From contig JAAOMT010000128.1 of NCBI GenBank assembly GCA_016748015.1, forward strand, positions 1,433,538 to 1,497,537: a stretch of DNA of 64,000 nt. Reading direction: 5' to 3'. Shown piece by piece: positions 2,064-63,700 of the stretch (positions within the stretch are counted from its first letter, which is position 1; each line of letters opens with the position of its first letter). This DNA is from Geosiphon pyriformis uo1. Its lineage: Eukaryota > Fungi > Glomeromycota. The notes under the pieces are model-generated. The model was given only the letters and a program-made list of their open reading frames with translations, ran no database searches and was not told the origin of the DNA. Position numbers and translations under genes: made by a program.

Positions 2064-3918
2064 TGAGTAGTTTTGCAGCTAAAAAAAACCAATCCGAATT
2101 TTGGCTTTTGGTTCAGTTAGTAAGAGTTTAGCACAGAAGCAAAAAGCTTTTTTTAACAAAGTAAAACATTCAGATGCTGAAGTAAATTTAAGTTTTACTG
2201 GTTTAGAGCATGTTGTTGGTCAGTTTGCTAAAATAAACACAAATAAAAATACTTCTAAAGTGGTCTTTTTGGATGGTAATATTAGTTATAAAGAAAGTAG
2301 TAAAAAGAAAAAGTGGTTCAATTCTAAAACAAATACTCTTAAAGTTAAGCAAGTTAATACTAATACTGTTTTTGGTTCTCTAATTAATTCTTTTAACTTT
2401 AACATAGATAATGATAAGATTTTTTTCTTTTTTATTTACCTATTTCTTTGAACAGAAAATGAATTGATTTCAAAATAACTAAGATTTAAGTGAAAGTTTC
2501 TGTTAGGAAGTCTTTTGTCTTGAACATTAATCTCTTAATCATAGATAGTAAATTAATAAATGTAAAAACTCAAATAGTCAAAAAACTTTTTTTATCAATC
2601 AATAATTTTGGAAGGACTATTATCTTCTTAAAATTTGAAGAAATCATCTGATTAATATTTATATTTGAAGATAGTATAAATAAGATCATATTATTGGCTA
2701 AAGATAAGAGAATTATCATAAACAATAATGTCAAAAGACAAGAATTTTGTTTAGATCAAACTATAATCATTAAAAAAATTTTTATAGATATACCAAAAAA
2801 ATTGATTATTGCCACAGTATCTAAATTTGGCCAAATTAAATTGATCCAAGTGTGACTAATTGGGTTATGTCAAAAAATTGTGATAAAATTCATTAAATTA
2901 GAGCAAGCTAATCAGTTGGCAGCCAGATGGTTATTCTTAATAGGTAAAAATTCTGTACATATGGCCAAAATTATAAAAAATTGTGAAACTTGAATGTTAA
3001 GAAATTATTTCAGTGTGTTTTTGTTTACTTTGTCAGTAAAAACAACTGTTTATAATTTTCATGCTCTTTTAAAGAGAGCTAATAAAAAAACATATGTTAT
3101 TAATTGGTTATTTAAAACTGGTAATAGGATTTGTTATGCTATAGTTGGTTTTGGTTCAAATGATAATCTAAATTTTGTATTTTGCACAGAACCAATTTTT
3201 GGTGATATTAAACTTTTTTGGACTAAATTGGATCTAATTAGGTATAAAAAGTGTGGTTTTTTGGACATTCTGCTATAAAATATGATGTATTTAATGTATT
3301 TACTTGTTTAGCTTCTAAGACATATAAAAAAGTTGTATTATGATTAGTTGGCCAAGCTATATACTAAAAAAAATATTTTCATCTCATATTCTGCTACCTT
3401 TGGTGGCAAATCTTGGACTTAAATAGTTTTGTTAATTTCTGTTTCAGATGATGTTTTTTCTGGTTCTGGTTTTGGCTTTCTTTTTTTTGGTGGTTTTTAT
3501 GTTGTTGATGCTCTTTTATTTTTATATAATGTTTTGTTTATTGAAGCTTATTTGAATTCTCTAAAATGTTTGTTGGAATTGTTGGCTGACCAAATTTCTG
3601 AAATTCTATGCAAGTTAAGTAACATAGAATTGATTTTTTTGGTCTTTGCTTCTTAATCTTTGATTCTAATTTCTTCTTTGGTATTAGACTTTATTTTAAA
3701 TTTGAGTATGATAATAAATATCTCACAGATTTTGCTTCTTTTTTTTTCTTTTATGGTATTTGATGCTTCAGTTTTAAGTTTAAACAGTTCTAAAATTTTG
3801 ACAACCAAAGTTGGTAGTCTAAAATTAAAACTCATGTTTGAAAGTACAATTGGTTTAGTTTTGGCTAAGTTGAATTAAATGATTGCAAGTTTGAGTTCCT
3901 TAGCAATACTTGTATCTT
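2064..3918 (+). pseudogene. LINE-1 ORF1 (many stops)
   Basis: Fragments 2101-2451, 2994-3278, 3429-3656 and 3660-3878 align with LINE-2 ORF1 (e.g. 'LNSSKILTTKVGSLKLKL' vs 'LSSSKVLTIKIDSLELKL'). Decayed CxxC knuckle near 3245-3280. Confidence 0.65.
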
Positions 3919-4168
3919 AATAACCAATTTTATTTGAAAATTTGCAATGTATAATATAAAAAAATTAAATAATGTTGCTAAATAGGAAGATATCATTAGG
4001 TAATATATTAATTTTGGCAATTTGGTTTTAATAATTACTGAAACTTAACAAATTAAGTCTTGAATTAAAGCCAAATTTCCAGATTTAAAGATTTTTATTT
4101 TCAGTTTAAATTTTGGTTACTTGAGCTCAGAAGTGGCCATAATTATAAACAATAATCTTGCTCAACAT
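3919..4168 (+). pseudogene. LINE-1 ORF2 N-terminus (APE endonuclease start)
   Basis: 'NFI*KFAMYN' resembles the APE N-terminal strand, followed by 'IITET' and 'SSEVAIIINNNLAQH'. Homologous to 55706-55970. Confidence 0.65.
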
Positions 4169-5033
4169 TGTTACAGGTGATTATTTGGGGTCTTAAAGCA
4201 AATAACAAACTCGTAACGTGGTGCTCAATTAATATAATGCTGTTGGTTTCTGAAAATTAGCTGTATCTAAAAATTTTCATGATCTGAAGGTTTTTGTTGA
4301 GTCTTTTGTATAATAAACAAAGATTCAATAGTTGTTTTTCTATTACTTCCCAAAATCACAATTCTGTCGAATTTCTTTCTCAGCATGATGACTGGTAATT
4401 CTTCTGATAAGCTATTCTTAAATCTATGAGTTCTCTACTCTTGTTTTATGAGTCTTTTACTAATCCCTATAATGTTTGTAACTCAGCATTTTTTAATTCT
4501 TAATCAATTAGTAAAACAAAAAGAAATAACAAAAGAAAATAAAAAAAAATAAAAGAAAATAAAGAAATAAGCCAAGACAATTACAAGTTAGTATTCTGTC
4601 AATAGCTGTGATCAAGAGCTATTGTTCCAGTGAATTTAAGTATTGATTACTATCAACATGAAGAGTTGATAATGAAAAGTAGATTTAAGATAGTAAATAA
4701 GTTTTTATTGATATTTGTGATATAAAAAGTTGTTTAGATCAAATCTAAACTCAGAAGTCTGTTTTTTTTTCTTCTAATGCTACCATTATATATACATAAT
4801 TAAGATTCTTTAATTCCTTGATTTTTCACACCAAGAATTCTGGAATTTCTGGAATCTTGCAATTCCTCTTGAAAAGAATTCTGGAATTTTGTAATTTCTT
4901 GTTTAAGAATTCTGAAATTCCTGGAATCCTGCAATTTCTCTTAAGAGAAATCCTGAAATTCCACATTTACTATGGCTACTTCTGATTGGTTAATTTTATA
5001 TGCTAATATACTTTTTATATTTTATGAGTAACA
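4169..5033 (-). repeat. Element A 3' LTR
   Basis: TGTTACA...GAGTAACA termini. Followed on + by TTATTCCCTCCTTTT, the reverse complement of a PPT (5034-5048). Homologous to 34776-35206+44942-45253 and 60796-61664. Confidence 0.9.
4833..4962 (-). promoter_or_regulatory. U3 tandem array of GGAATT(C/T)CTGGAAT-type motifs between a CCAAT box (~4982-4991) and a TATA-like box (~4787-4796)
   Basis: Repeated gaattctggaatt / gaatcctgcaatt units seen directly. Same array in G LTR at 61458-61592. Regulatory role inferred from position. Confidence 0.55.
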
Positions 5034-5700
5034 TTATTCCCTCCTTTTTAATATTGAGCTCTGTCAAAATCTTCTAATTCTAATTTTTTGTTTTTAAGTA
5101 TTTCTTGAACCTCTTTTTCAAGAATTACTTGTGTTATCTTGTTTTGTAATTTCTTAAATTGGGCATTGGTTATTTTTCCCATTTGGTTAATGGTAATAGA
5201 ATCTATTGTTGGATTGAGTAAGATCTCTGGTCAGTCTTGAAATCCAGTATGTAGCCAATAAATGGCTCTTGCTTATGTGGTCAAATTGTTTTTCTTTACA
5301 AATTGTTCTAGTTGTTGCAGTATTGTTGTGTCAAATAATCATTTTGTTTTATCTGTATATAAATTCTGAATATTTAAGTGTTGTCCCAAGTAAAAATAAC
5401 AAAAGTTTGTTGGAATTTGTTGTATCCACCAATTCCAAGTTTCTATAGTCAACTTTTGATATTGTGTGACTTTTGGTTGTGCTTCTATTACTAATTTTAC
5501 CTTTGTAATTATTTTGTCAATAGTGTTTTCTGTTTTTTTCCGTATTTTATCTTATGGTCTCTTTTTGGTGTTTTTATATCTGATGATTTGTTGATTAATT
5601 GTAATTTCCATCTTTTGTTGTTGGATTATTTGAAAGAGTTGTTGTGCTAATAAGTGGATGTTACTGGTAATTTTTATTTCTGCTGTCTTTTGTTACATAT
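5034..5700 (-). pseudogene. Element A ORF3 (accessory ORF after integrase)
   Basis: Minus strand reads 'IHLLAQQLFQIIQQQKMEITINQQIIRY...FCYF.LGQHL...ARAIYWLHTGFQD.PEILL...ITINQMGKITNAQF'. Homologous to ORF 61679-61894 and 21889-22212. Confidence 0.7.
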
Positions 5701-6756: not shown

Positions 6757-7728
6757 TGTTACCAGTAAAATTTTAGCTATTAATTAGCATGAAATTACTC
6801 TTATAATTCTTATTATTAATTAGCATACATTATTATTAATTCGATTATCACTTATTATTTAATCAAATTATCAAATATCATTACTCAATCAATAATCCGA
6901 TTTGTACTCTAGAAATTAAGATAATCAAATTACACAATACCCTGAACCTTTTAACATAGTCAAAATTCGCCGAAATTAATGAAAATTTGCCGAAATAATC
7001 AATAGTTCAGTGAAATAACTTGTAAATTCACCAAAATATATTTTTAGTTTACCCAAAGTATAGCAAAGAGAAAAGTGCAAGTTTAAAGACTAGTACTACA
7101 ACAAGTTGTATAAAAGAAAAGCTTTTCTCTTCAAGGAAATGTATCTTTTCATAGTACTTTACCATAGTATTTTACTTTAGATATCTTAATTGAAACAAAT
7201 CATCTTTTACAAAATCAAATAAAAATTAAATATTTAAAAACCAAATTCTTAAATTATTACACTTGAAATTTCCTCAACACAACTAACGTTTTGAAATTGA
7301 TTAGCTACCAATTTCAATAAACTGTTAGTGACTCCAGGCCTGAATAGAAAACGTTTTCCTTGATAAAATCCTATTTCTTTTACAATTTTTTTATTTTTCT
7401 TTTATTTTCTTATTACAAATTATTAGGGTAGCCTACAGACAAGATTTCTGTAGAAGAGTTGACTTTCACAGCAAAGTAACTACACATTTTAGTGAGCTTC
7501 CAGACAAGCAATTCCTGGGAAAGAGTTGATGTTTACTACAATGTAACTACATAAAGTAACTGGCAAGAAATTGGCCATTCCACTTATAAGCCCAGCAATT
7601 CAAATTATAGGAGATAATTTGAAGATAAATTCAGTTACTGGAGGTTCAACTACTTCTAGAAAACATGAATTTGCAACCAACAGACATTTACAACATTCAA
7701 AAAAAGAGACCAAAAACCTCTGGTAATA
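6757..7728 (+). repeat. Element B 5' LTR
   Basis: TGTTACCAG...TGGTAATA termini. Near-copy at 15540-16511. TATAAAA at 7109-7115. Confidence 0.93.
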
Positions 7729-7729
7729 T

Positions 7730-7747
7730 TTGGTACTCTCCTATAGA
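7730..7747 (+). other. Primer binding site of B (decayed TGGTGCTCTCCCACGGAA)
   Basis: 'tggtactctcctatagaa' directly after the LTR. Intact version at 27313-27330. Confidence 0.75.
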
Positions 7748-10870: not shown

Positions 10871-10989
10871 TCCCCTGCCAGAGAAAAATAATGAAAATGA
10901 AATTGAATTTGGAGTATCTGAACTGGTAGAAGAACTACCAACCACCCCTATCTATCTTCTTAAAAAGCAATCATCTCTATAACTTAAAT

Positions 10990-11410
10990 ATTTCGACAAC
11001 CATGGTCAAGGAATCAGACCAGAAAAAGCACACGAAATTGATGCTGGATATGACCTAAGATATCCAGGAAAAGATACTTTGGTTCTCCAACCAAAGTCCT
11101 TAACAAAAATCAATCTCAAAATTGCTTTTGAAATTTTACCTGGAGCAATGGTTCAAATTGCATCCAGATCATCATTGGCAAGCAAAGGAATCAATGTTAA
11201 AGAAGGAGTTATAAATACAGGATATACTGGAAACATTACCATCATGTTACAAAATGAAACAGACAAACTATTCAGAATTGAACATGCTGAAAAAATTGCC
11301 CAAGCAATTTACCTACTCCTAATTAACATTTCGGAGTTACAATCAGTTAAAAACAGAGAACAATTGGGAAAAAGTGAAAGAGAAACTCAAGGTTTTGGTT
11401 CAACTGAATG
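10990..11410 (+). pseudogene. dut: Element B dUTPase
   Basis: Trimeric dUTPase motifs 'DAGYDL', 'ASRSSLA', '(G)GVI(D).GYTGNI', 'KIAQAI', 'R.TQGFGST'. Confidence 0.88.
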
Positions 11411-11869
11411 ATTTACAGTTCCAGTAAACATAGTTTTTAATACACAGAATGAATCTTACCAGATTCTTCAACTTCCCCAACCAATTACCATTTCACCTTT
11501 TAGTAAACATCACGAAATTTACACTTGCTCAAAACCCACCACTACCCAACAAATCTTTAAATCCAATAAACAAATCTGTTTGAAGCATGAAATCTCAATC
11601 CCAAACGTTTATATTCTTAAAGGAATGAAAAAATTTTGAGTTACATTCTATAACCTCAATAATTACCCCATTGTCTTATTGAACAAACTAGAGATTGGAA
11701 TCATACACAGTAACATTTTTCAAGATAAAAACCCTCAAATTGTCTCTAATTTCATCGAAATTATAAGACATACACTACTTCCAAATCTAAACATCATTTC
11801 TACCACTGAAAACTACCACTTTTTGGAAGAAAAACTCTCTCGAATCAACATGGGTCTCTTGGAACCCCA

Positions 11870-13254: not shown

Positions 13255-13313
13255 TACCAACATTAACACCAACAAAACACCAACAAACTTAAACAGCAGA
13301 ACAAATAACAACA

Positions 13314-14697
13314 ATAGATTCAGAAAACTACAACAACATTAAAAACTATTTGGAGACTCTCACCATGCCAAAAAATTGGTCTTCAAGTGAAAAACATTAA
13401 TTACAACACCAATCCAAACAATATTTTATACACCACAACAAAATCTATTACAAAAATCGTAGAAATCCAAACCAATCACTCAGATTAGTACAAAAGAATG
13501 AAAAAGAAACAATCTTATACAACATGCACATAGATCCTTCTTCAGCACACTTGGGAAGAGATGGAACAATACAAAGAACTCTTGAACATTATTTTTGGCC
13601 TCAAATGCAAAAAGACATTCAACAATATATAGAATCTTGTGATAGTTGTCAAAGAAGAGGAGGAACTCGCCCCATAGAATCTTTAAATCCAATCAAAGTT
13701 GGACAACTTTTTAACAGAGTTGGAATTGATTTAGTCGGACCATTACCTATTACAACTCAAAAAAATTGTTATATTGCAGTCACAGTAGATTATCTTACCA
13801 AATGGCCTGAAGCTAAAGCCATCCAAAGAGTAGATACAAAATTAGTAGCAAATTTCATCTATAAAGACATTATTTGTAGACATGGATGTCCAATTAAACT
13901 TTTATCTGATCAAGGAACACATTATAAACAACTTGATACAAGAAATTTGTGAACAATTCAATGTCAAAAGACCTCTATTATCACTTTATCATTCTCAAAC
14001 AAATGGACTTGTAAAACGTTTCAACAGAACATTGTGTGAATCTCTAGCCAAAGTCTCAACAGACTTTGAGCAGGAATGAGATATCTTTATTTCATCAGTG
14101 TTATTAGCATACAAAACACTAAAACAAGATACTATGAAACACATACCATTTGATTTAACTTATGGAAGGACAGCAACATTACTAATTAATTTCACAATAG
14201 AAACATACCCTGTACAACCAATTAATGAAGAGAACTTTCAAAAAACACTCCAAAGAAGGGCCTACACTCTTCTTAGTACACTGGAAGGAAAAAGAAGAAC
14301 AGCAGCAACTCATATTGAACATTCTCAAACTCAACAAAAAGAAAGACATGACAACAAACTACCACCCATAACCAACGAATTTAAAGTTGGAAATAAAGTT
14401 CTCTTACACAGAACTAAGGCTAAAAAACAATGGAGTAGAAAATTTGAAAACAAATGGAATGGACCATTTTATATTCACAAAATTCTAGGCAATAGATCAT
14501 ACAAGTTAAGACTTGATGACAAAATACTAGCAAAAGTTGCACATGGAGATAGATTGAAACACTATCACTTCAAAAACAATTATAAATCATTAATTCCACA
14601 AATTGGTACACATTCCCCTTTAATTAAACCTGAAGATATTCCCCGAAATTTAGAACCAATAATTATAATAGAACAACAGCCAAACTTGAACACTTAA
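13314..14697 (+). pseudogene. Element B integrase (separate ORF: HHCC, DDE core, GPY/F module; no chromodomain seen)
   Basis: ORFs 13524-13952 and 14098-14697 ('KFENKWNGPFYIHKILGNRSYKL'). Start codon decayed to ATA at 13314; it is ATG in E. Confidence 0.88.
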
Positions 14698-14851: not shown

Positions 14852-15559
14852 ATGATTATTCCCCAAAATATTCAACAAATATCCCAAAAATTAATGTTAG
14901 CTTTGAAAACACTTCCTGACTTATCCATAATGATTAATGGAAGTCAAATTAATTACATTTAAAAAGAAACCACAGCCCCAATAGTAAATAATTCTTAAAA
15001 CTACCACCCCTATAGAAGAAAAACAAAAGATCATTCTGAAAAAAGGTTACCAGAACTTTTGAAGCAAGCACTGAAAAAAAACTTTTAAATTGCCCCTATT
15101 GACATTCCACCAAATGCCACAATTCAACAGAAACTTTTACTATGTCTTAATGAACAGAACAATGAACATACTCTTATATATAGATATTTTCATATTGGGA
15201 AAACACTTTACGAACAAAAACTGGAACTTGAAGCAACCAACATCACTCCTAAGACTATACAAAAACAAATTCGCAATGAATTTAAGACAGCAGCTGTATT
15301 AACAAACACTTGCTACAAACTTAGAGCAGCTTTTAGACTTTATAATTTATTTACCACTTGTGAAAACATCTTACAAAATTCAATACTCCAATCAATGAAA
15401 GTTCAATACATTGGAAAACTCACAAAACTGAAATTTCAACAATTTTCAGACCAAATCACTTCAATTATCTTGGACCACTATTTTAACATCACAGATAGTG
15501 CTTGGACTTTGACAGAGCTTAGTCTTAAGGAGGAGATTATGTTACTAGTAGAATTTTAG
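14852..15559 (+). pseudogene. Element B ORF3 (accessory), overlaps PPT and ends inside the 3' LTR
   Basis: ATG at 14852 'MIIPQNIQQISQKLMLAL...IYRYFHIGKTL...KLRAAFRLYNLF...QYIGKLTKLKFQQF...LTELSLKEEIMLLVEF*'. Homologous to 29190+ and 36258-36665. Confidence 0.75.
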
Positions 15560-16511
15560 CTATTAATTAGCATGAAATTATCTTTATAATTCCTATTATT
15601 AATTAGCATACATTATTATTAATTCAATTATCACTTATTATTTAATCAAATTATCAAATATCATTACTCAATCAATAATCCGATTTGTACTTTAGAAATT
15701 AAGATAATCAAATTACACAATACTCTGAATCTTTTAACATAATCAAAATTCGCTGAAATTAATAAAAATTTGCTGAAATAATCAATAGTTCAGTGAAATA
15801 ACTTGTAAATTCACCGAAATGTATCTTTAGTTCACTCAAAGTGTAACAAAGAGAAAAGTGCAAGTTCAAAGACTAGTACTACAACAAGTTGTATAAAAGA
15901 AGAGCTTCTCTCTTCAAGGAAATGTATCTTTTTATAGTATCTTACTATAATATCTTACTTTACATATCTTAATTGAAACAAATCATCTTTTACAAAATCA
16001 AATAAAAATTAAATATTTAAAAACCAAATTCTTAAATTATTACACTTGAAATTTCCTTAACACAACTAACGTTTTGAAATTGATTAGCTACCAATTTCAA
16101 TAAACTGTTAATGACTCCAGGCCTGGATAGAAAACGTTTCCCTTGATAAAATCCTATTTCTTTTACATTTCTTTTATTTTTCTTTTATTTTCTTATTACA
16201 AATCATTAGGGTAGCCTACAGACAAGATTCTTGTAGAAGAGTTGACTTTCACAGCAAAGTAATTACACATTTTAGTGAGCTTCCAGATGAGTAATTCCTG
16301 GGAAAGAGTTAACGTTTACTACAACATAACTACATAAAGTAACTGGCAAAAAATTGGCCATTCCACTTATAAGCCCAGCAGTTCAAATTATAGGAGATAA
16401 TTTGAAGATAAATTCAGTTACTGGAGGTTCAACTACTTCTAGAAAATGTAAATTTGCAACCAACAGACATTTACAACATTTAAAAAAAGAGACCAAAAAT
16501 CTCTGGTAACA
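15540..16511 (+). repeat. Element B 3' LTR (PPT AAGGAGGAGATTA at 15527-15539)
   Basis: Direct repeat of 6757-7728, ending TGGTAACA. Confidence 0.93.
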
Positions 16512-17689
16512 CTGGGTTTTGTTCTTTTTCTTCTCTGAAAAGCATCACAATTTTGAAAATATTGAATGATATCTGAATACATTGATGGCCAATAGTATCT
16601 TTTTTTGGCTCTTTCTATGGTCGCTTCTTTGTGAAAATGTCTTGTTGTTGGGTCTGAGTGCATGTTGAACAATATTGTTTCTTTTTCTGAACCAGAATGG
16701 CCAATACACACATGTATCAGCCATATGTGGCCATTTTAAGACCACCAAATCGACAACACCACTCATCGAGTTTGAGGAAGAAGAAAAAAAACCTACCTAG
16801 AAAGCCTATCAAGTGTCATGGGCTAAAGAAGATCATAACAAGTTACCACCAATACTCTCCTAGAATGATAACAGAAAAGGAAAACAAAAGAAAAAACTTA
16901 CCTAGAATGCTGACCAAGACTGGGAAACCAACAATGACTTAAACAAACTACCAACCTGGGAATGGGAAAAAACTAACAAAAAAAAAAGAAAAAAGAAAAA
17001 AGAAAAAAGAAGATATAATCAAAGAAACCACCACCACAAAAAAAATAACTAGTGGCTGGGAAAGAGAATACTCATGAGAACTAATTAAAGAGCCACCATA
17101 TATATCTCTCAAATGTAAGAACTATGGGAAGAAACTTTTTTCTATGGGAGCTTGGGTTGCGCCAGACAAAGATTACTGGATGCGAATCCACTATTATTGC
17201 AAGCCTTGCCACCACAAATGCTATGGCTACCCAAAAAGACAAGACAAATAGAACAACAAACTCTATCTCACTTGCAGTAAACAACTACTAAATGAAGGAA
17301 TGTGGAATGACATTCCTGGATGAAAAAGAATGTACGATGCTTTATGCCAATACACAATTCTTATCAGCAATTGGGTAAGTCATGGTATGCCAATAACTGC
17401 TGTCTGGCACTGTGTAATATCTTGCTTGGATAGTTATCTACATGACAAAGACAAGATTTGGCAAATGGCAAATGCCAAAGTAGTAAGTACTATGTCTAGT
17501 AAAATATTGGAAATCAAAAACAACTCTCTGGAGCCAGTCAATATTGTTCTGATTCCCAATCCAGACACTTTCCTGGACCTGGAAGCAGGCCCAGAAGAAT
17601 TCCATGAGCACTACCAAAATTTGGCATCAACAAAAGAGGAATAAGAGCAGCATTTAGCCCAAATAAAAACCCAACTATGTGATTATTGT

Positions 17690-18943
17690 TTGATCCCATG
17701 TGACTTTCAAAATTGTAATAAGTGTGACCTTATTTACAATCCACCACTACACATGATCTACACAATTTCAGAGGAAGAACCAATTAGTAGCTGCACATTA
17801 AAATTGGAATTAATTTTCAATCCTGATTCAAACTCTGACAACAATGACGACAAAAATAATGGTTTCAGCTCTGCTCAATATGGCAACAAAGATAACAATG
17901 ATTTGGACTCTGATTCAAACCCCAAAACATACATTGCACTCTCTGATCTCACCAAGAAACAAGAACTCAAATGGTTCAGTAATAATAATAAAAGTATTAT
18001 GCCAGAATGCACACATGATACTAATGCAGGATTTGATCTGAAATATTCAGGGAAATATCCCATCAAATTGAAACCACATTTGTACACTTGCATCAATCTG
18101 AAAATAGCACTGGAAATTTTAGCAATGACAATGGTTCAATTAGCATTCAGAAGTAGTTTAGCGAAAAAGGAGATCAACATCAGAGGAAGAATAATTGATG
18201 CAGAATATGTAGGAAATATCATTGCTATGCTACAAAATGACTCAGAAAAAGCATATATCATAGATCCCAATAAAAAGATAGCACAAACAATTTTCCTACT
18301 TCTGGTGAAAATAACTCAACTAGTGTTAGTGAAAAACAGAGAAGAATTAGGGATCACAGCTAGAGGGATACAGAGATTTAGATCAATGAATAGAATAGAT
18401 GTACCAGTTAATATGGCAAAGGAAGAAATTGTTGACAAAAGAGAAATTATCTCAATCTGTCAATCAATTTCTATTCTACTATACAACCAGTACACAGTAG
18501 TTATAGAAAAAAAAGTGAAAGATCAGATGCAAATTTTTGAGACAGAAGCAACACTGTGTAAATCAGGAGAAATTGGACTTACCAATCTTTACATACCAGC
18601 CAAAAACCATAATCACATCAAAATTCCCATCTACAACAACACGGGAAATGTTTTAAAAATACCAGAAAGAATCATTATTGGCTATTTAACCATTGAAATT
18701 GAAGACCAACAGCCAGATACCATTTCAGATTTTCCACAACTATGCAGATATGTGGATATTACATCACAAACCATATATGGACAAGAAAAATGTTATCTGC
18801 TTCAACAGAAACAGTTGGAACAGATGAATATAAGGAACTTAGACTCACTACAATGTATGCAACTTATGATGTTACTCAACAATTTCAATGACATCTTTGC
18901 TAGCAAAAACGAATTTGGCAAAACTGACATAATTCAGTATTAA
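17690..18943 (+). pseudogene. dut: Element C pol segment with dUTPase (~17970-18390)
   Basis: 417-aa ORF with 'TNAGFDL', 'AFRSSLA', 'IIDAEYVGNI', 'KIAQ', and decayed 'RGIQ(G)F(G)S'. Confidence 0.85.
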
Positions 18944-21671: not shown

Positions 21672-22345
21672 ATGACAAAAACAACCAAGAAAAATAGAAA
21701 TACCAGATTATATTCACACTATAGCTCAACAATTGTTCCAAACCTTAAGTTAACAACAGTTAGACATGGAAATTGTTATTAACAACCAAATAATTTACTA
21801 TTAAAACACCCAAAAAAAAACAAAAAATACACCATATTAGTGGCCACCAAAGAATGATAAAAACTAAACAGATAACTTAATAGAAAAAGTGAAAAACATT
21901 TTTGGAAAAATACCTATTATGATACTAACAGAAAAGCTTACAAAAAAAAATTGGAAGCAATGGACAAAACGACTTCCAATATCATACTGCTACTATCAGT
22001 TAAGTCAAAAGTTGAATATTCAGGAGTTGTATATCAATAAATCCAAGAAAATATTCAATCAAGACATAATACAACAAATTGAAAAATTTATTGGAAAGAA
22101 AATGAATTCAACACTACATGTTAAAACAATGTACCAACTATACAACATATTTCAGAACTATCCAGAAATACTGTTACACTTAGACATGGAAACCATAACC
22201 ATTAACCAATAGAGAAAAATGAACAATACACAAGTAGAAAACATGAGAAACAGAGTCGAACAAACAATACTTGAAAAAAAAGTATTAGAATTAATTCAAA
22301 CCAAAGATTTTGATAAAGCTTAATATTAAAGAAGAAGATAATATT
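21672..22345 (+). pseudogene. Element C ORF3
   Basis: 'IPDYIHTIAQQLFQTL...MEIVINNQIIYY' and ORF 21889-22212 'YCYYQLSQKL...MYQLYNIFQNYPEILL...ITINQ'. Confidence 0.7.
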
Positions 22346-23196
22346 ACTCATAAAAGAAGAAAAACAGATATAGAAAAATAGTAGACCAATAAGAAAGTAG
22401 TAGTTAGCATATGAGCACATTGCTCAGCAATGTGGAGCAATGTCAGAAATTATGGCACATTGCTCAGCAATATGGAGCAATGTCAAGAAAATATGACATA
22501 TTGCTCAGTAATATGAACATTGCTTAAGAAATTATAGCACATTGCTTGGAAATATAAGTGATCTTGTAAAACCCAAATTATGTATATATAGTGGTAGCAT
22601 TAGAAGTAAAAAAGACAAACCTCTCAGTTTAGATTTTATTTAAGCCACTTTTTAATCCACAAATATCAATAAATAATTATTTTCTATCTCAAATCCATTC
22701 TTTACTATTAATACTTTATGTTGATAGTTATTGACACTTAACTACACTAGAACAATAGCTCTTGATTATGGCTATTGATGGAATACTAACTTGTGCATTG
22801 CCTTGGCTCATTTTTTTATTTCTTTTTATTTTTCTTTTCTTTGATTTTATTATTGCATACTAATTGATTAAGGATTAAAGCACTGAGTTATTGATGTTAT
22901 AGACAGTCTGGTAAAAGACCCAGAAATAAGGGTAGAATTATATATATATTAACAGATAGTTTACCAGAAGTGCACGACTGCCAGAATAAACCAGCCACCA
23001 TGCTAAAGACAGAAATTGGGAAAACAACTTACCAACCAACTATATTATTATTAAATCTCTGTCCATTATACAAAAGACTCAACTCTAAAACCTTTAGATA
23101 CACCTCCATACCAGTATTACCAGCATTATTAAGATATTGAGCACTAAGTTACAGATTTGATATTTGATTTAAGACCTCAAATAAACATCTGTAACA
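22342..23196 (+). repeat. Element C 3' LTR
   Basis: T(G>A)TTACTCA...CTGTAACA after a purine tract. The 3' two-thirds is homologous to the A/G LTRs; U3 differs. Confidence 0.88.
22413..22552 (+). promoter_or_regulatory. U3 array of CACATTGCT/AGCAATGT motifs, incl. palindrome CACATTGCT-C-AGCAATGTG (22416-22434)
   Basis: Seen directly. Lies between CCAAT (22386) and TATATATA (~22583). Function inferred. Confidence 0.55.
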
Positions 23197-24092: not shown

Positions 24093-25071
24093 TGTTACCA
24101 GAGGTTTTTGGTCTCTTCTTAGCTCTTGTATGTTTGTTGTAATGCTGTTAATTCATGACTATGGGAAGTGTTTGAACCTCTGATAACTGAATTTTATCTT
24201 CAAATTATCTTCTATAATTTGAACTGCTGGGCTTATAAGTGGAATGGCCAATTTCATGCCAGTTGCTTCATATAGTTACATTGTAGTAAACATTAACTCT
24301 TTCCCAGAAATTGCTCATCTGGAAGCTTACTAAAAATGTGTAGTTACTTTGCTGTGAAAGTCAACTCTTCTACAGGAATCTTGTCTGTAGGCTACCCTAA
24401 TGATTATAATAAGAAAATAAAAGAAAAAAAATAAAAGAAATGTAAAAGAAATAGAATTCTGTCAAGGAAAACGTTTTCTATTCAGGCCTGGAGTCACTAA
24501 CAGTTTACTGAAATTGGTAGCTAATCAATTTTAAAACATTAGTTGGATTTTGGGGATTTTTCAAGTGCAATAATTAAAGAATTTGGTTTTTTGAATTATT
24601 TGATATTTATTTCTTTTTGTGTGTGTAGAAATAGTTCTAAGTAATAAATCTAAGTAAGATATATTTTCTTGAAGAGAGAAGCTCTTTTTTTATACAACTT
24701 ATTATAACACTATTCTATAAACTTGAACTTTGTTTTTTTCTACAATTTCACTAAATTAAAGATACATTTTAGCAAACTACAAGTTATTTCTGTGAACTAT
24801 TAGATATTTTGGTGAACTGTCAATTATTTTGGCAAATTTTTACAAATTTCAGCAAACTTTTGAATGTTACATATTTTGGGATATTGCATGATTAATTATC
24901 GCATTTAGATTACATTTGTGTTATGTACAAATTGGATTATTAATTAAATGATAATTTCGGACATTTTGCTAATGTAATAGGTAATAATTTGAAACGATAA
25001 TATATGCTAATTAATGATAGGAATAAAGATAATTTCATGCTAAATAATATCTCTAATTTTGTCTGGTAACA
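24093..25071 (-). repeat. Solo LTR, family 2 (E-like subfamily)
   Basis: Homologous to the E LTRs. Perfect TSD GTGG (24089-24092 / 25072-25075). Confidence 0.92.
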
Positions 25072-26449: not shown

Positions 26450-26539
26450 TTCGCCGAAATTAATGAAAATTGGCCGAAATAATTCATAGTTCAGCGAAAT
26501 AACTTGTAGTTCGCCGAAATGTATCTTTAGTTCACCGAA
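26450..26539 (+). promoter_or_regulatory. U3 phased array of TTCGCCGAAAT motifs, 20-21 bp period
   Basis: Motifs start at 26450, 26470, 26490, 26510 and 26531. Decayed copies at 6966-7057, 15749-15840, 24807-24858, 35846-35956 and 44609-44720. Confidence 0.6.
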
Positions 26540-27312
26540 NNNNNNNNNNNNNNNNNNNNNNNNNNNNNNNNNNNNNNNNNNNNNNNNNNNNNNNNNNNNN
26601 NNNNNNNNNNNNNNNNNNNNNNNNNNNNNNNNNNNNNNNNNNNNNNNNNNNNNNNNNNNNNNNNNNNNNNNNNNNNNNNNNNNNNNNNNNNNNNNNNNNN
26701 NNNNNNNNNNNNNNNNNNNNNNNNNNNNNNNNNNNNNNNNNNNNNNNNNNNNNNNNNNNNNNNNNNNNNNNNNNNNNNNNNNNNNNNNNNNNTCTCAAAT
26801 AAAAATTAAATATTCGAAAACCAAATCCTTTGATTATTACACTTGAAATTCTCTCAACACAACTAACATTTTGAAATTGATTAGCTACCAATTTCAGTAA
26901 TCTGTTAGTGACTCCAGGCCTGGATAGAAAACGTTTCCTTGACAAAATTCTATTTCTTTACGTTTCTTTTATTTTTCTCTTTCTTTTCTTATCATAATCA
27001 TTTGGGTAGCCTACAGACGAGATTCCTGTAGAAGAGTTGACTTTCACAGCAAAGTAACTACACATTTTTTTAGTGAGCTTCCAGATGAGCAATTCCTGGG
27101 AAAGAGTTGACGTTTACTACAACGTAACTACATAAAGTAACTGGCACGGAATTGGCCATTCCACTTATAAGCCCAGCGGTTCAAATTATAGGAGATAATT
27201 TGAAGATAAATTCAGTTACTGGAGGTTCAACTACTTCCTGAAAACGTGAATTTACAGCAAATCAACATTACCAACATTTAAGAAAAGAGACCAAAAAACC
27301 TCCGGTAACATT

Positions 27313-27330
27313 TGGTGCTCTCCCACGGAA
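27313..27330 (+). other. Intact 18-nt primer binding site TGGTGCTCTCCCACGGAA
   Basis: 2 nt after the LTR end. The reverse complement has the layout of a tRNA 3' end (T-stem CCGTG, acceptor GGAGAGC, A, CCA). Confidence 0.82.
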
Positions 27331-27355
27331 ACAACACAGCAACAACAACTTCAAA

Positions 27356-29049
27356 GTGGCGTCTGCTTCAGACATAACAACTCTAGAGTACTACCAGTCA
27401 ATTTACACTCACTGCAAGCAAAGATTCAACATCCAAGACGGAATTGAGGCATTTAAGAAATCATTATACCAATACATCGAAAACCGATTCAACAACTACC
27501 TACTTGGAGACTACAACATTACTGAAGTCAAAAGCAACCTCTACAACAACTTACTACACTATTCTCGTCTAAATACTGAGGAGCTCAACAGTGAAACAAT
27601 TGCCACCTACTTTCAAGAACTTGANNNNNNNNNNNNNNNNNNNNNNNNNNNNNNNNNNNNNNNNNNNNNNNNNNNNNNNNNNNNNNNNNNNNNNNNNNNN
27701 NNNNNNNNNNNNNNNNNNNNNNNNNNNNNNNNNNNNNNNNNNNNNNNNNNNNNNNNNNNNNNNNNNNNNNNNNNNNNNNNNNNNNNNNNNNNNNNNNNNN
27801 NNNNNNNNNNNNNNNNNNNNNNNNNNNNNNNNNNNNNNNNNNNNNNNNNNNNNNNNNNNNNNNNNNNNNNNNNNNNNNNNNNNNNNNNNNNNNNNNNNNN
27901 NNNNNNNNNNNNNNNNNNNNNNNNNNNNNNNNNNNNNNNNNNNNNNNNNNNNNNNNNNNNNNNNNNNNNNNNNNNNNNNNNNNNNNNNNNGAATGGTTCG
28001 AAAATTTGGAAGGACCATTTGAAAACTGGCAAGCATTCAAAGATGCTTTTCTTCAACAGTTCACCGACAACAACACCTCTATCACACTCCGAAACCGATT
28101 CCGAAACATCAAGCAAGATCCATCAGAATCAGTCATGACCTACCTTGGAAAGTTCAACAAACTACTCAGAAGAATTCGCCAATTGGAAACCGATGAATAT
28201 TACTCCAACGCTCAGATTTTGGATCAATTTATTGCTGGACTAAAGGACAAACTGATCAAGAAAGTTCGCCCACACAACCCAGAAGATTTAGCTACTGCCA
28301 TTCGCCATGCGAAAAATTATGAAATGGCTATGGAAGAAGCTAACCGCACAAAGCTTGTTAACCTTGCCATTGGTGAAACCAGCTCAGCAGCTGAAGAGAA
28401 AATTGACCAGCTTACCAAGAAAGTTGAAAACTACTTCACCAATCAACAACAACCGCAGCAACAACCGCAAAGATATCAACCACCCCAACGACGGAACCAA
28501 GGAAACTTCTCATCAGCACCCATTGGTCAACCCCAGAATTGCCACTATTGTGGAATTCCAGGACATTGGAAACGAGATTGTAGGAAGTTGCAAAGAGACC
28601 AGCAGCAAAGGAATAATCAACGTCATTCCCAACCACAACAATCATACTATCAATTTCCACCACCACCAGCTTATCATTCACCAAGACCACAGTACCAGAA
28701 CAACTATTATCAACCCGCTCCCCAACTAATGCAACAGCCATACCAACAACCTCCACCAATTGCACAATATCAACAACCACCTCCAGTTCAACAATACCAA
28801 GTACCTGCTAGGAGAATCACTCAACAAAATCAATTCACACCACAAAATCGTTTTCAAAACAACAACAACAGAACTAGCTCCAACAATCAATTGGTACCCA
28901 GAAATCCGATTCAACAGAGACATAATCATTACCAAACACAACCAAGTTACTTAACAATGCCAGAGGAACAGAATTTTCAACAAACTGCACTTTTTGAAGG
29001 TGAAGTTGCAGCACCAAGACAAAACCCTTCTACCAACAACCAAACTTGA
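27356..29049 (+). CDS. gag: Element D Gag, no stops in the sequenced parts (spans an N gap)
   Basis: ORFs 27356+ and 28006-29049: retrotransposon capsid-like 'IKQDPSESVMTYLGKF...QFIAGL', knuckle 'CHYCGIPGHWKRDC', Q/P-rich tail. Confidence 0.85.
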
Positions 29050-29189: not shown

Positions 29190-29587
29190 ATGATTATCCC
29201 CCGAAATATTCAACAAATATCCCAAAAATTAATGTTAGCCTTGAGAACACTTCCTGACTTATCCATAACAATTAATGGAAGTCAAATTAATTACATTCAA
29301 AAAGAAACCCCAGCCCCAGCAGTCAACAATTCTCAGAATTATCACCCTTATAGAAGAAAAGCTAGAAGTCAGTCTGGAAAACAATTACCAGAACTTGTAG
29401 AGCAAGCGCTAAAAGAAAACCTCTTATTTGCCCCTATTGACATTTCACCAAATGCCACAATCCAACAAAAACTTCTACTACTGCTTAATGAACAAAACAA
29501 TGAACATACCCTTATTTATAGATACTTTCATATTGGAAAAACACTTTATGAACGAAAACTGGAACTTGAAGCAACAAACCTCACTCC
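29190..29587 (+). CDS. Element D ORF3, open until the N gap
   Basis: 'MIIPRNIQQISQKLMLALRTLPDL...IYRYFHIGKTLYERKLELEA', 132 codons with no stop. Confidence 0.8.
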
Positions 29588-30535
29588 NNNNNNNNNNNNN
29601 NNNNNNNNNNNNNNNNNNNNNNNNNNNNNNNNNNNNNNNNNNNNNNNNNNNNNNNNNNNNNNNNNNNNNNNNNNNNNNNNNNNNNNNNNNNNNNNNNNNN
29701 NNNNNNNNNNNNNNNNNNNNNNNNNNNNNNNNNNNNNNNNNNNNNNNNNNNNNNNNNNNNNNNNNNNNNNNNNNNNNNNNNNNNNNNNNNNNNNNNNNNN
29801 NNNNNNNNNNNNNNNNNNNNNNNNNNNNNNNNNNNNNNNNNNNNNNNNNNNNNNNNNNNNNNNNNNNNNNNNNNNNNNNNNNNNNNNNNNNNNNNNNNNN
29901 NNNNNNNNNNNNNNNNNNNNNNNNNNNNNNNNNNNNNNNNNNNNNNNNNNNNNNNNNNNNNNNNNNNNNNNNNNNNNNNNNNNNNNNNNNNNNNNNNNNN
30001 NNNNNNNNNNNNNNNNNNNNNNNNNNNNNNNNNNNNNNNNNNNNNNNNNNNNNNNNNNNNNNNNNNNNNNNNNNNNNNNNNNNNNNNNNNNNNNNNNNNN
30101 NNNNNNNNNNNNNNNNNNNNNNNNNNNNNNNNNCTTTTATTTTTCTCTTTCTTTTCTTATCATAATCATTTGGGTAGCCTACAGACGAGATTCCTGTAGA
30201 AGAGTTGACTTTCACAGCAAAGTAACTACACATTTTTTAGTGAGCTTCCAGACGAGCAATTCCTGGGAAAGAGTTGACGTTTACTACAACGTAACTACAT
30301 AAAGTAACTGGCACGGAATTGGCCATTCCACTTATAAGCCCAGCGGTTCAAATTATAGGAGATAATTTGAAGATAAATTCAGTTACTGGAGGTTCAACCA
30401 CATCCAGAAAACGTGAATTCACAGCAAACAAGCATCAACAACATTTAAGAAAAGAGACCAAAAAAACCTCCGGTAACAATGGGTTGTTTTTGATTATTCT
30501 TATTTCTTCTGATAACACTTCTTTGATTTTGGTAA

Positions 30536-35206: not shown

Positions 35207-36172
35207 TGTTATCAAAGGTTTTTGGTCTCTTCTTAGCTCTTGTATGTTTGTTGTAATGCTGTTAATTCACGATTATGGGAAGTGTTTAAACTTCTGATAA
35301 CTGAATTTATCTTCAAATTATCTTCTATAATTTGAACTGCTAAACTTATAAGTGGAATGGCCAATTCTGTGCCAGTTACTTTGTATCGTTACATTGTAGT
35401 AAACATCAACTCTTTCCCAGGAATTGCTCGTCTGGAAGCTCACTAAAAATGTGTAGTTACTTTGCTGTGAAAGTCAACTCTTCTACAGGAATCTCATCTG
35501 TAGACTATCCTAATAATTGTAATAAGAAAATAAAAGAAATGTAAAAGAAATAGAATTTTATCAAGAGAAACGTTTTCTATCCAGGCCTGGAGTCACTAAC
35601 AGTTTACTGAAATTGGTAGCTAATCAATTTCAAAACATTAGTTGGGTTTTGGGGATTTTTCAAGTACAATAATTAAAGAATTTGGTTTTTTGAATTATTT
35701 GATATTTTTTTTTTTGTGTGTATAGGAATGGTTCTAAGTAATAAATCTAAAGTAAGATACATTTTTTCAAAAAGAAAAGCTCTTCTTTTATACAACTTGT
35801 TGTAACACTATTCTATGAACTTGAACTTTGCTCTTTTTTACAATTTCACTGAACTAAAGATACATTTTGGTGAACTACACGTTATTTCTGCAAACTATTA
35901 GATATTTCGGTGAACTATCAATTATTTCAGCAAATTTCTACAAATTTCAGTGAACTTTTGAATGTTACATATTTCGGGGTATTGCATGATTGATCATTGC
36001 ACTTAGGTTACATTTGTTTTATGTACAAATTGGGTTATTAATTAAATGATAATTTTGAACATTTTTCTAATGTAATAAGTGATAATTTGAAATGATAATA
36101 TATGCTAATTAATGATAAGATTTATAAGGGTAATTTCATGCTAAACAATATCTCTAATTTTGTCTGGTAACA
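35207..36172 (-). repeat. Element E 3' LTR
   Basis: Direct repeat of 43959-44937. Confidence 0.92.
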
Positions 36173-36860
36173 TAATCTCCTCCTCAAAACTGAGCTCCAT
36201 TGAAGTCCACATACTGTCTGTAATTTTCAAATAATAATCCAAAATTATTGAAGAAATTTAGTCTGAAAATTGTTGAAATTTTAGTTTTGTGAGCTTTCCA
36301 ATGTATTGAATCTTCAAAGGCTGTAAAATTGGGTTTTGTAGGACGTTTTCACAGATGTAGAATAGGTCATAAAGTCTAAGAGCAGCTTTTAGTTTATAAC
36401 GACTGTTTGTAGGTCCAGTTGTTGTCTTGAATTTATTGTGGAGTTGTTTCCAAATAGCTTCTTTTGTGAGGTTTGCTGCTATAAGCTCCCGTTTTCGTTC
36501 ATGAAGTGTTTTTCCAATGTAGAAATATCTATATATTGGAGTATAGTCATAGTTTTCTTCATTAAGACACAGTTGAAGTTTTTGTTGAATAGTAGCATTC
36601 GGTGGAATACTAATAGAAGTGAGCATTAAGTTTTCTCTTAAAGCAAGTTTTAAAAGTTTTGGCAAGTGAATTCCAGAATAACTTCTTGTGTTCTTCTTAT
36701 ATGAATGGTATTTTCGTGAATTTGGGGCTAAATTTGTGACTACTTCTGTTTAAGTATAATTAATGTGGTTTTTAGTAACAGTAATAGATAATTCAAGTAT
36801 TATTTTTAAAGCTAACATTAGTTTTTGGGATAATTGTTGAATGTTTTGAGGAATAGTCAT
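36173..36860 (-). pseudogene. Element E ORF3
   Basis: ATG at 36860 'MTIPQNIQQLSQKLMLAL', plus ORF 36258-36665. Confidence 0.78.
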
Positions 36861-43914: not shown

Positions 43915-43958
43915 TTTGAAGTTGTTTTGCTGTGTTGTTTCTGTGGGAGAGCACCAAA

Positions 43959-44937
43959 TGTTACTGGAGGTTTTTGGTCTCTTCTTAGCTCTTATATGTT
44001 TGTTGTAATGCTGTTAATTCACGATTATGGGAAGTGTTTGAACCTCTGATAACTGAATTTATCTTCAAATTATCTCCTATAATTTGAACTGCTGGGCTTA
44101 TAAGTGGAATGGCCAATTCCGTGCCAGTTACTTTGTATAGTTACATTGTAGTAAACATCAACTCTTTCCCAGGAATTGCTCATCTGGAAGCTCACTAAAA
44201 ATGTGTAGTTACTTTGCTGTGAAAGTCAATTCTTCTACAGGAATCTCATCTGTAGACTACCCTAATAATTGTAATAAGAAAATAAAAGAAAAATAAAAGA
44301 AATGTAAAAGAAATAGAATTTTATCAAGGGAAACGTTTTCTATCCAGGCCTGGAGTCACTAACAGTTTACTGAAATTGGTAGCTAATCAATTTCAAAACA
44401 TTAGTTGGGTTTTGGGGATTTTTCAAGTACAATAATTAAAGAATTTGGTTTTTCAAATTATTTAATATTTATTTTTTTTTGTGTGTATAGGAATGGTTTT
44501 AAGTGATAAATCTAAAGTAAGATACATTTTCTCAAAGAGAAAAGCTCTTCTTTTATACAATTTGTTGTAACACTATTCTATGAACTTGAACTTTGCTCTT
44601 TTCTACAATTTCGCTGAACTAAAGATATATTTTGGCAAACTACACATTATTTCTGCGAACTATTAGATATTTCGGTGAACTATCAATTATTTCAGCAAAT
44701 TTCTACAAATTTCGGTGAACTTTTGAATGTTATATATTTTGGGGTATTGCATGATTAATCATCATACTTAGGTTATATTTGTTTTATGTACAAATTGGGT
44801 TATTAATTAAATGATAATTTTGGACATTTTTCTAATGTAATAAGTGATAATTTGAAACGATAATATATGCTAATTAATGATAAGATTTATAAGGGTAATT
44901 TTATGCTAAACAATATCTCTAATTTTGTCTGGTAACA
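43959..44937 (-). repeat. Element E 5' LTR
   Basis: Adjacent PBS (reverse complement 'ttctgtgggagagcacca', 43939-43956). Confidence 0.92.
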
Positions 44938-60795: not shown

Positions 60796-63700
60796 TATTA
60801 CAAATGATTATTTGGGGTCTTAAGTCAAATAACAAATCTGTAATCTGATGCTCAATTAATGATGTTGGTGTTAGTAACGTTTGTAAGTTGTTTGTATCTG
60901 AAGGTTTTGGTTGAGTCCTTTGTATAATGAACAGAGATGCAATAGTGGTTTATCTATAGCTTCCCAGAATCGCAATTCTGTCAATTTCTTTCTTCAGCTT
61001 AATGGCCAGCAATCCTCTGATAAGTAATCCATAATTCTTTACATGTTCTATCCACTTGCAGGAGTCTTTTACCAAGCAATTCTTGATGTCAATAATTTAG
61101 CACTTAATCTTTAATCAATTAGTAAACAAAACAAAGAAAAAAAAATAAAAAAAATAAAGAAAAAATAAAGAAAATTAAGCCAAGATATTTACAAGTTAGT
61201 ATTCCATCAATAGCTGTAATCAAGAGCTATTGTTCTAGTGTGGTTAAGTATCAATTGTTATCAACATAAAGTGTTGATAGAGAAGAGTAGATTAGAGATA
61301 TAAAATAATTATTTATTAATATTTGTAATGCAAAAGGTTGCTTAGATTAAATCTAAACTGAGAGATCTCTAACTAAAGAATTCTGTCTTTTTTTTTTTCT
61401 AATACTACTGCTATATATACATAATTGAGATTTCTCAATTCTTCAATTCCTTACACCAAGAATTCTGAAATTTCTGGAATCCTGCAATTCCTTTAAGAGG
61501 AATTCTGGAATTCTGGAATTCTGTGATTTCTTGTACTAAAATTCTGAAATTCCTAGAATTCTGCAATTCTTTTTAAGAAGAATCCTGGAATTTCACATTT
61601 ACTACAGTTATTTCTGATTGGCTAATTTATGCTAATATATACTTTTTATATTCTATGAGTAACATTATTTCTTCTTTTTTAATATTGAGTTCTGTTAAGA
61701 TTTTCTAAATCTCCTAACTCTAATTTTCTGTCTTTGAGTATTTCTTGAACTTCTTTTTCGAGAATTAGTTGAGTTATTTTGTTCTGTAATTCTTCAAATT
61801 GAGTGTTAGTTATTTTTCTTATTTGGTTAATTATAATGGAGTCTATTTCCAGATTAAGTAAAATTTCCAGTCTGTCTTGGAATCCAGCATGCAATCAATA
61901 AATGGCTCTTGCTTGTGTTATTAGATTGTTCTTTCCCACAAATTGTTCCAGTTGTTGCAGTATTGTTGTGTCAAATAATTGTTTTGTTTTATCCATGTAT
62001 AAGTTCTGAATATTCAAGTGTCATCCCAAGTAGAAATAACAAAAGTTTCTTGGAAATTTGTGTATCCACCATTTCCACATTTTTTTGGTCAACTCTTGAT
62101 ATGTAGTGACACTTGTTGGTTCTTCTATTGCTAATTTTATTTTCAGAACCATTTTGTTAATAGTGTTTTTTGTTTTTCTTTGACTTTTGTATTTGGGTAT
62201 TTTTCTGGTATTTTGGTATCAAATGGTTTGTTAATTGATAGTAATTTCTATATTCTGTTGTTGAATTAGTTGGAAGAGTTGTTGTGTTAGTGAGTGGATA
62301 TTGTCAGTGATTTCTATTTTTTTGAAGTCTTTTGTCACATTTATCATGTCTTTATATACTTTTTTTATTGTTCAATTTTATGTGTTTGGTCCAATGATTA
62401 TGATTGGTTTCAGATCCCATGAAATCTCATCTGGTTGGATTAGTATTCTCTGTACTCCTAATTGTGAAATATTACTGGTCGATGGTGATATTATATGGTA
62501 ATATGGTTTCAGTCAATCACTATATGCTGCTTTGGCTAAAATTTTATTGTTCTATCTTAGTTTATAAGCTCTATTTCCAAGAACTTCTTCTATGTGAAAT
62601 GGTCTATTCCATTTGGAGTCAAATTTTCCACTCTATTGTTTTTCTGCTTTGATATGATGTAAAAGTACTTTGTCTTCAATCTTGAATTCAACTGGTTTAT
62701 CTGATAATTGGTTATCATGTCTTTTTTTTTGTTTCTCTTGTGATTTTTGAATGTTATCAGCTGCTTTTCGCCATTTGTTTTTTAATGTTTCCATTAAGTC
62801 ATATGTTCTTTGGAAATTCTCTTTTGTTATTAGTTCTGTTGGATATGTTTTGACTTCTATCTCCACTGGCACTGTTGCTGTTCTACCATATACTAATTCA
62901 AATGATGTTGCTTGTGTAGTGTCTTGCTTTATTGTCTGATAAGCAAATAATACTGATGGTATAAACAAATTTCATTTATTTTGGTTTTTTTGGCTGATTT
63001 TGGATATTGCTTTACACAATGTTCTGTTGAATCTTTTGACTAATTCATTTGTTTGCAGATGATATGGCAATAATAGTGGTCTTTTGATTCCAAATCTTTG
63101 GCTTAATTCTGCTAATGTTTTATTTACAAAGTGAGTTTCTTGATCAGATAATAATTTTTTTGAACATTTGTGTCAACAGATCAAGTTTTGATGAACAAAT
63201 TCAGCAATGGATTTTGCATCTGCTCTTTAAATGGCTTTTGCTTCTGGCCATTTTGTGAGATAGTCCATGACTACTGCAATATATCTGTTGCCTCTGCTGG
63301 TGATTGCTAATGGTCTAACTAAGTCAATTCCAATGCAATCAAATGGTTGTCTTATCTTGATTGGTCTTAATGGTTCACTGGGTTTTGTTCTTTTTTTTCT
63401 CTGACAAGTATTACAATTTTGAACATATTGGATGATGTCTGAATATATTGATGGCCAATAGTATTTTTTTCTAGTTCTTTCTATGGTTGCTTCTTTATAA
63501 AAATGTCTTGCTGTTAGATCTGTGTATATGTTAAACAATATTGTCTCTTTTTCTGGTTCTGTAATTACTCTGGTTGGTTGATCTGGATTCTTTCTGTTTT
63601 TTCGGTAAAGTATATTTTGGTGATTGATAAAATATTTTAATTGTTGTTTGATGTTGTTTTGTTTCTTTTAAGATAATTTCTCCTTGAACAATTGAGTATT

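Follow-up and report, generated by a model that had tools for sequence, protein, structure and literature searches.

The 64-kb stretch of Geosiphon pyriformis DNA analysed here (the window) raises the question of what is done by ORF3, an additional gene that follows integrase in its retrotransposons, and whether this gene is functionally paired with the repeat arrays in the U3 regions of the same elements, as an earlier note had proposed. By self-BLAST, the window proved to be a nested set of decayed Ty3/Gypsy LTR elements, identified as such by a PR-RT-RH-INT order and the presence of LTRs, a PBS, a PPT and gag; the domains encoded comprise Ty3-type gag, protease, dUTPase, RT, RNase H and integrase. 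LTR elements make up 41.2% of the Geosiphon genome (excerpt of PMC11952901). The elements are designated by the letters of the earlier note, as matched to it in the present analysis. Element D (+ strand), for example, comprises a 5' LTR (6757..7728, with an array inside at 6966-7037), an integrase (13401..14697; H2C2, rve and a weak SH3) in a reading frame separate from RT-RNase H, a PPT within the ORF3 frame (15527..15539) and a 3' LTR (15540..16511) with 94% identity to the 5' LTR. Because LTR pairs differed almost only by transitions (transitions:transversions of 53:2 in D and 38:1 in E, with 11 and 14 transitions, respectively, at CpG) and the CpG observed/expected ratio was low (0.17 for the whole window), all divergence tests used transversions. 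Element B is interrupted by N gaps (26540-26792, 27625-27990 and 29588-30133), and several long ORFs listed in it were discarded as artefacts of N stretches.

ORF3 is a conserved and selected accessory gene

The earlier note had described an ORF after integrase in every element with a 3' end, running through the PPT into the LTR. The gene itself was recovered in all six such elements (A, B, C, D, E and G) by one profile (E 1e-32 or better), which includes the D/E, A/G and C types by construction and had no other match in the window below E 11. Its copies lie at 14852..15559 in D (+; profile match 14852-15556; 235 codons, 3 internal TAA stops), 29190..29587 in B (+; profile match 29190-29585; 132 codons, no stop, truncated by an N gap), 36141..36860 in E (-; profile match 36860-36150; 239 codons, 2 internal stops), 5048..5680 in A (-; profile match 5677-5069; decayed), 61679..62347 in G (-; profile match 62317-61718; 4 internal stops) and 21685..22329 in C (+; profile match 21694-22305; a divergent type, decayed), with 4-5 or more internal stops each in A and C. 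The gene is universal among these elements but the open frame is not, as D, E, G, A and C carry internal stops. The passage through the PPT likewise held in part: the final codons of the D copy read through the PPT into the LTR and the E copy also enters its LTR, whereas the A, G and C copies (and, likewise, database relatives of this group) end just before the PPT, because a DNA motif shared there is read in another frame.

Homology of ORF3 across two divergent families was confirmed by profile comparison, in which D/E and A/G were colinear (187 columns, 86%, E 4.7e-6); tblastn gave no link between the D/E and A/G families and pairwise BLASTP a weak one (E 0.006), and a third ORF3 type, P0189, matched both by tblastn. 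A further search raised the number of types to at least eight. Among the matches listed for the D ORF3 query (120, of which 29 were full length) and the G ORF3 query (51), all were Geosiphon pyriformis hypothetical proteins. The profile had 115 matches among 1.84 billion representatives, and the ten looked up comprised seven Geosiphon and three metagenomic proteins. No Pfam family reached the cut-off (25 and 12 members scanned), no relative was found among viral contigs, and the papers searched contained no account of this gene. That ORF3 is merely a neutral or spurious frame, as the stops in all complete window copies might indicate, is extremely improbable in view of the transversion-only pN/pS (0.26-0.57 in 6 of 6 window pairs, bearing out the selection that the earlier note had asked to see measured), the third-position excess, the intact relatives and the confidently predicted fold described below. 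ORF3 is a real, conserved and selected accessory gene of a Ty3/Gypsy clan found in fungi related to Geosiphon.

U3 arrays and their exchange together with ORF3

Every array was located directly upstream of a TATA box, and a period of 20-23 or 40-41 bp was significant in 11 of 12 U3 regions, the exception being that of L004, a metagenomic locus described below. The D 3' LTR contains four TTCGCCGAA-like units spaced by 20-21 bp (15749..15820, +; TATA at ~15892) and the B 5' LTR five CpG-rich units (26450..26539, +), this being the only B array visible because the N gap at 29588-30133 covers both the B ORF3 end and the 3' U3. In E, arrays are present in the 3' LTR (35845..35955, -) and 5' LTR (44600..44720, -), and an E-type solo LTR (24093..25071, -) has one at ~24740-24856. 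ATTCC/GGAAT units with 8 and 40 bp periods make up the A array (4830..4960, -); the G array lies at 61450..61591 (-); and the C array (22416..22556, +) consists of CACATTGCT-C-AGCAATGTG units spaced by 40-41 bp. Two LTRs without a visible ORF3 also had arrays: one from another family (~31352-30484, -; its own 23-bp array at 31158-31264), sequence related to which follows ORF3 in P0189-type gene models, and a probable solo LTR (~53795-52870, -) with a very regular 21-bp array (53629-53746).

Relative to shuffles, the B/D/E motif TTCGCCGAA had 19 matches (0.93 expected), the A/G motif GGAATTCTGGAAT had 18 (2.6 expected) and the C palindrome had 5 (0.02 expected). The A/G motif is not, as the earlier note had it, a perfect palindrome as written; the array units are ATTCC-N-GGAAT and GAATTC-NN-GAATTC. 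A cross table over 12 LTRs was near-diagonal. The D-type motif had 4-7 occurrences in each of the six B/D/E LTRs and was absent from the remaining six; A and G had 10 occurrences of the A/G motif and C had 5 of the C motif, and outside their own types each of these two motifs was present 0-2 times. The claimed co-variation of ORF3 type with U3 array is upheld. D-type motif matches at the end of integrase (14639 and 37033) were excluded from the count because the codons there are shared with A/G/C. The B/D/E arrays had CpG observed/expected ratios of 1.5-2.4 in 4 of 6 cases, versus 0.11-0.25 elsewhere; the A, G and C arrays are now without CpG, and array CpGs decay between LTR copies.

Element C provides the most direct view of how gene and array move. 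Its LTR had been called A-like apart from the array, which holds downstream of the TATA box, and its integrase and R/U5 are A/G-like, whereas a foreign block (21680..22576, +) spans ORF3, the PPT and the U3 array. In a three-segment fit, the left edge of this block (21674-21684) coincided with the ORF3 start and the right edge (22563-22588) fell beside the TATA box, with C-specific transversions at 9/1035, 169/820 and 34/550 sites across the three segments (dLL of 121.5, compared with 15.3 or less in 4762 permutations). Synonymous transversions in integrase placed A, G and C nearly equidistant (0.021-0.034); in ORF3, C differed from A and from G by 0.43-0.44, and A from G by 0.093 (Fisher P for the contrast between integrase and ORF3 of ~1e-11 for C and 0.049 for A-G). 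For D and E, which share a motif, the corresponding values were 0.21 in integrase and 0.26 in ORF3 (P 0.36). Consistently, A, G and C were not separated in the integrase tree, and C fell outside A+G in the ORF3 tree. As synonymous sites are affected, the divergence of the C ORF3 reflects different ancestry and not positive selection: ORF3 and array entered element C as one foreign block, with no crossover in the conserved PPT region that separates them. During reverse transcription, U3 is templated by the RNA 3' end, and any switch of template ahead of ORF3 would therefore leave a right edge of this kind; moreover, as ORF3 and U3 are adjacent at the RNA 3' end, one switch carries both, and co-variation is no proof of coupling. 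The gene and array travelled together in C, the one clear joint exchange, from which a need for joint travel does not follow.

One metagenomic locus (L004), from among 594 candidates listed in a metagenome scan, supplied an additional pair; three other loci (L001-L003) were chance pattern matches and were dropped. L004 contains, in order, RT-RNase H, a stop, integrase, a 316-base spacer, an intact 230-codon ORF3 whose frame continues into the LTR as in D and E, a PPT and an LTR. Its U3 motif, the near-palindrome TTTGC-N6-GCAAA, is the fourth ORF3-linked motif, so that gene and array are both available for only four ORF3-array types. Of 10 matches to this motif (at most 3 mismatches, either strand, near variants), 3 were in the spacer before ORF3, where the exact heptamer has P 0.005 for one copy; the two exact spacer copies represent one 21-bp duplication and the third, a near-copy, is on the other strand. 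The spacer also contains a TATA-like stretch, and comparison ruled out that it is as a whole a duplicate of U3. Own-motif copies upstream of ORF3 were not found in D, E, A or C. In D and B, a pyrimidine tract and AG precede the ATG by 11-13 bases, suggesting that ORF3 may be expressed from spliced RNA in B/D/E, and a TATA-like box ~40 bases before the likely ORF3 start in A, G and C suggests that an internal promoter could serve in A/G/C and, by its spacer, in L004.

Predicted fold and look-alikes of the ORF3 protein

The earlier view of ORF3 as non-env agrees with hydropathy: no transmembrane segment was found in 10 of 10 proteins (highest 19-residue hydropathy of 0.27-1.29), and a secretion signal, judged by hydropathy alone, was likewise not apparent, with no hydrophobic stretch in 10 proteins. 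A model predicted for P0209 from 57 sequences (pLDDT 83.5, core above 90) replaced a first model from 25 sequences (pLDDT 48), which was discarded together with its fold searches. The predicted order is a small helix-hairpin, helices 105-122 and 129-144, a conserved turn, helix 149-163, two short helices and one long helix, that is, a helical core in which two helices are joined by a conserved G-K/P-x-N turn.

The DNA-binding fold that the earlier note had hoped to find did not emerge as a significant match (VIA-align best Z 4.2, none at 5), and Foldseek returned a best E of 0.26 against the PDB and of 0.043 against viral structures, none at E 0.001. The helix order of ParB/Spo0J/KorB and sigma region 4 helix-turn-helix domains resembles that of model residues 84-210, but their scores are within noise, at Z 3.3-3.8 among unrelated bundles (Spo0J, Z 3.6, rmsd 5.5, 96 aligned; ParB, Z 3.4, rmsd 3.0, 59 aligned; KorB, Z 3.3, rmsd 4.7, 92 aligned; sigma-F, Z 3.8, rmsd 2.4, 56 aligned). 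A filamentous-virus coat chain appeared at Z 4.0 (below Z 5), and a language-model atlas gave 0.91-0.92 for the closterovirus coat family (138-150 of 256 features, below the atlas feature threshold), with Mucoromycota proteins as the nearest clusters (0.93). Two sequence-based candidates were rejected: importin-5, from a PDB sequence search, had E 0.0012 with one profile and E 1.3 with a deeper one and was taken as chance; and DUF1016_N (YhcG N-terminal) had a best Pfam E of 0.037 in 3 of 25 members and, in hhalign against 70 members, reached 0.5%, with 5 of 40 shuffles scoring higher.

Within the model, one segment stood out in the comparison of C with A/G. The first half of helix 149-163, directly after the conserved turn (22108..22131, +, in C), was the least identical of 189 eight-residue windows (0.03, mean 0.41), bearing in mind that overlapping windows are not independent and that one residue is inserted at the turn in C. 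For D and E, whose motif is shared, identity in this half helix was average (0.68-0.72, mean 0.67), and the dip was absent between distant types (18% in the segment and 21% overall for D versus A/G; 28% and 26%, respectively, for A/G versus the P0206 type). In helix-turn-helix proteins, bases are read by the first half of the recognition helix, and we infer, on the strength of the model, that the first half of helix 149-163 may be such a DNA-reading segment. C-type ORF3 was found at 3 further loci; within-type counts for this helix are used solely as evidence of such copies, because sorting the types by that helix makes the counts partly circular. With the joint movement of C ORF3 and array against integrase, the peak at one helix and the fourth pair in L004, the co-variation is stronger than first claimed.

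Candidate functions of the ORF3-array pair

Together, these results define a new family of accessory proteins, closely paired with promoter arrays and, in one clear case, exchanged jointly with the array. In all six window elements and in L004, ORF3 is a sense additional ORF (aORF-3S), resembling those described in excerpts of PMC7264820 and, for bdelloid ORF3s, PMC5408684 in being an extra conserved gene between integrase and the 3' LTR. In the excerpts compared, however, known sense additional ORFs are env-like or enzymes and those of Retand are antisense, whereas ORF3 is in sense orientation and has no Pfam family. Retand TRP28 probably binds DNA, and a regulatory role has been proposed for some extra ORFs (excerpt of PMC11963269). 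Most extra ORFs of LTR retrotransposons are described as lacking a known function (excerpts of PMC7264820 and PMC11728184), and none in these excerpts is tied to a type-specific U3 array, as ORF3 is.

Two established regulators, both named in the earlier note, offer closer parallels. Foamy virus Tas/Bel1 is, like ORF3, the product of a 3'-located accessory gene, and it binds both the LTR and an internal promoter (excerpt of PMC4929722), an arrangement that L004, with its U3 motif also upstream of ORF3, may resemble; no such copy was found in D, E, A or C. Tas, however, belongs to vertebrate retroviruses, no Pfam or viral fold match was found for ORF3, and binding by ORF3 is putative. VANC proteins of Arabidopsis VANDAL elements occur in types paired with fast-evolving tandem target motifs (excerpt of PMC5735166), as ORF3 types are with arrays; the type-specific tandem motifs are present here and their role as targets is putative. 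VANC proteins contain DUF1985/DUF287 domains, neither of which was found in ORF3 (25 and 12 members), and act in a Mutator DNA transposon, whereas ORF3 resides in a Gypsy element and its candidate targets are confined to U3 and helically phased. ORF3 is therefore assigned to neither system; the likeness would be by analogy, through a working model that we hold at a little under even odds. Another analogy, and only that, comes from lambdoid phages, in which the immunity region exchanges regulator and operator as a block between otherwise alike genomes, the phage case being a prokaryotic repressor switch.

In that working model, to which we assign a probability of roughly 45%, ORF3 is a self-encoded, sequence-specific LTR regulator that binds its own U3 array and activates the LTR. 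A soluble, DNA-binding ORF3 would occupy the phased repeats of its own U3, with the helix after the G-K/P-x-N turn reading DNA and dimers sitting on inverted half-sites (ATTCC, ATTGC, WTTCG or TTTGC); several sites on one helix face could allow cooperative activation, and the bound protein would turn on transcription from the LTR. The gene and its repeats would travel as one exchangeable specificity cassette, and private protein-site pairs would let a lineage activate itself and not its decayed or competing relatives. The fuller version, a regulator of a new family and possibly a new fold, in which a single helix carries the recognition code and which is swapped between lineages as a cassette together with its operator array, is more tentative.

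Close behind the LTR-regulator reading, as a credible but somewhat less probable account, is the possibility that host transcription factors bind the arrays (heat-shock factor those of A/G, other factors those of C and D/E), with ORF3 having a different task, such as the export or packaging of RNA or entry into the nucleus, and co-varying only as a neighbour. The heat-shock element consensus is three alternating nGAAn pentamers, and near matches to it occurred in the A and G arrays (4 and 2, shuffle mean 0.04), with one perfect triplet, in G, so that a host factor could read them; yet two also occurred in E and none in C or D, and the pattern was not enriched across the window (34 versus 30.6). 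A single template switch would account for C, and the weak coat-protein look-alikes (in the atlas and at Z 4.0) fit a different role for ORF3, as do a Rev-like accessory protein in the Cer1 retrotransposon (excerpt of PMC10309623) and, for the arrays, the commonness of host-factor sites in LTRs (excerpt of PMC13547354). This account, however, requires that each of the array types, at least six in number and similarly phased, has a host factor of its own, and leaves the one-helix dip and the L004 upstream motif unexplained.

An ORF3 that bound its array as a VANC-like anti-silencing factor, keeping or making the LTR unmethylated, is unlikely, although the strong transition decay of the LTR pairs and low window CpG, the CpG-rich B/D/E arrays, CG methylation of transposable elements in Rhizophagus (excerpt of bioRxiv 2021.03.30.436303) and the evolution of VANC targets as tandem repeats (excerpt of PMC5735166) would all suit it. 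The A/G/C arrays, in contrast, have no CpG, array CpGs decay between LTR copies, and ORF3 lacks a VANC domain; the present data favour anti-methylation no more than plain transactivation. Still less likely is array binding that serves repression or the control of copy number, or binding of LTR DNA that escorts or targets the integration complex: the pairing evidence suits any binder and insertions show a 4-bp target bias, but the arrays lie directly upstream of TATA, an enhancer position, and the bias is common to elements with different ORF3 types (B, E and C).

With a candidate protein, a candidate site and a natural swap all in hand, the question is directly testable. If the regulator reading is true, it would describe a self-encoded transactivator in a fungal retrotransposon, and thus a new control system; it would offer a possible reason why LTR elements occupy 41% of the Geosiphon genome (excerpt of PMC11952901) despite heavy decay; and it would provide a natural library of orthogonal activator-promoter pairs.

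Several further features of these elements were observed. A stop after RNase H fell at one shared place in five of five elements (D, 13310-13400; E, ~38440; C, ~20290; G, ~63700; L004, 774-799); integrase then starts in a frame of its own, which in E and L004 has a Met. Such a split would be unusual for Ty3/Gypsy. A dUTPase lies between protease and RT (10983-11411, 17645-18943 and 39538-41163), as previously described for some fungal Gypsy elements (excerpt of PMC2864245). Target duplications of 4 bp were biased (ATGG in B and E, CCAC at the solo LTR 24093-25071, and CTGG/TTGA in D); the 3' flank of C is CCAT, and those of A and G, ATGT and ATAC, fit the bias less. The PBS begins TGGTGCTCTCC in B and E and is decayed in D (sites 7729-7745, 27310-27335 and 43930-43958). 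Decayed repeats of another kind (2300-4050 and 53900-57300) are mutually similar, possibly non-LTR elements, and resemble parts of gene model P0187 that are fused to ORF3. Finally, a GAGCTCA-like motif directly precedes the PPT in all families (15515-15548, 5033-5062 and equivalents; 3090-3125 in L004); it is kept although the ORF3 frame in which it is read varies, which makes a role as a cis signal probable.
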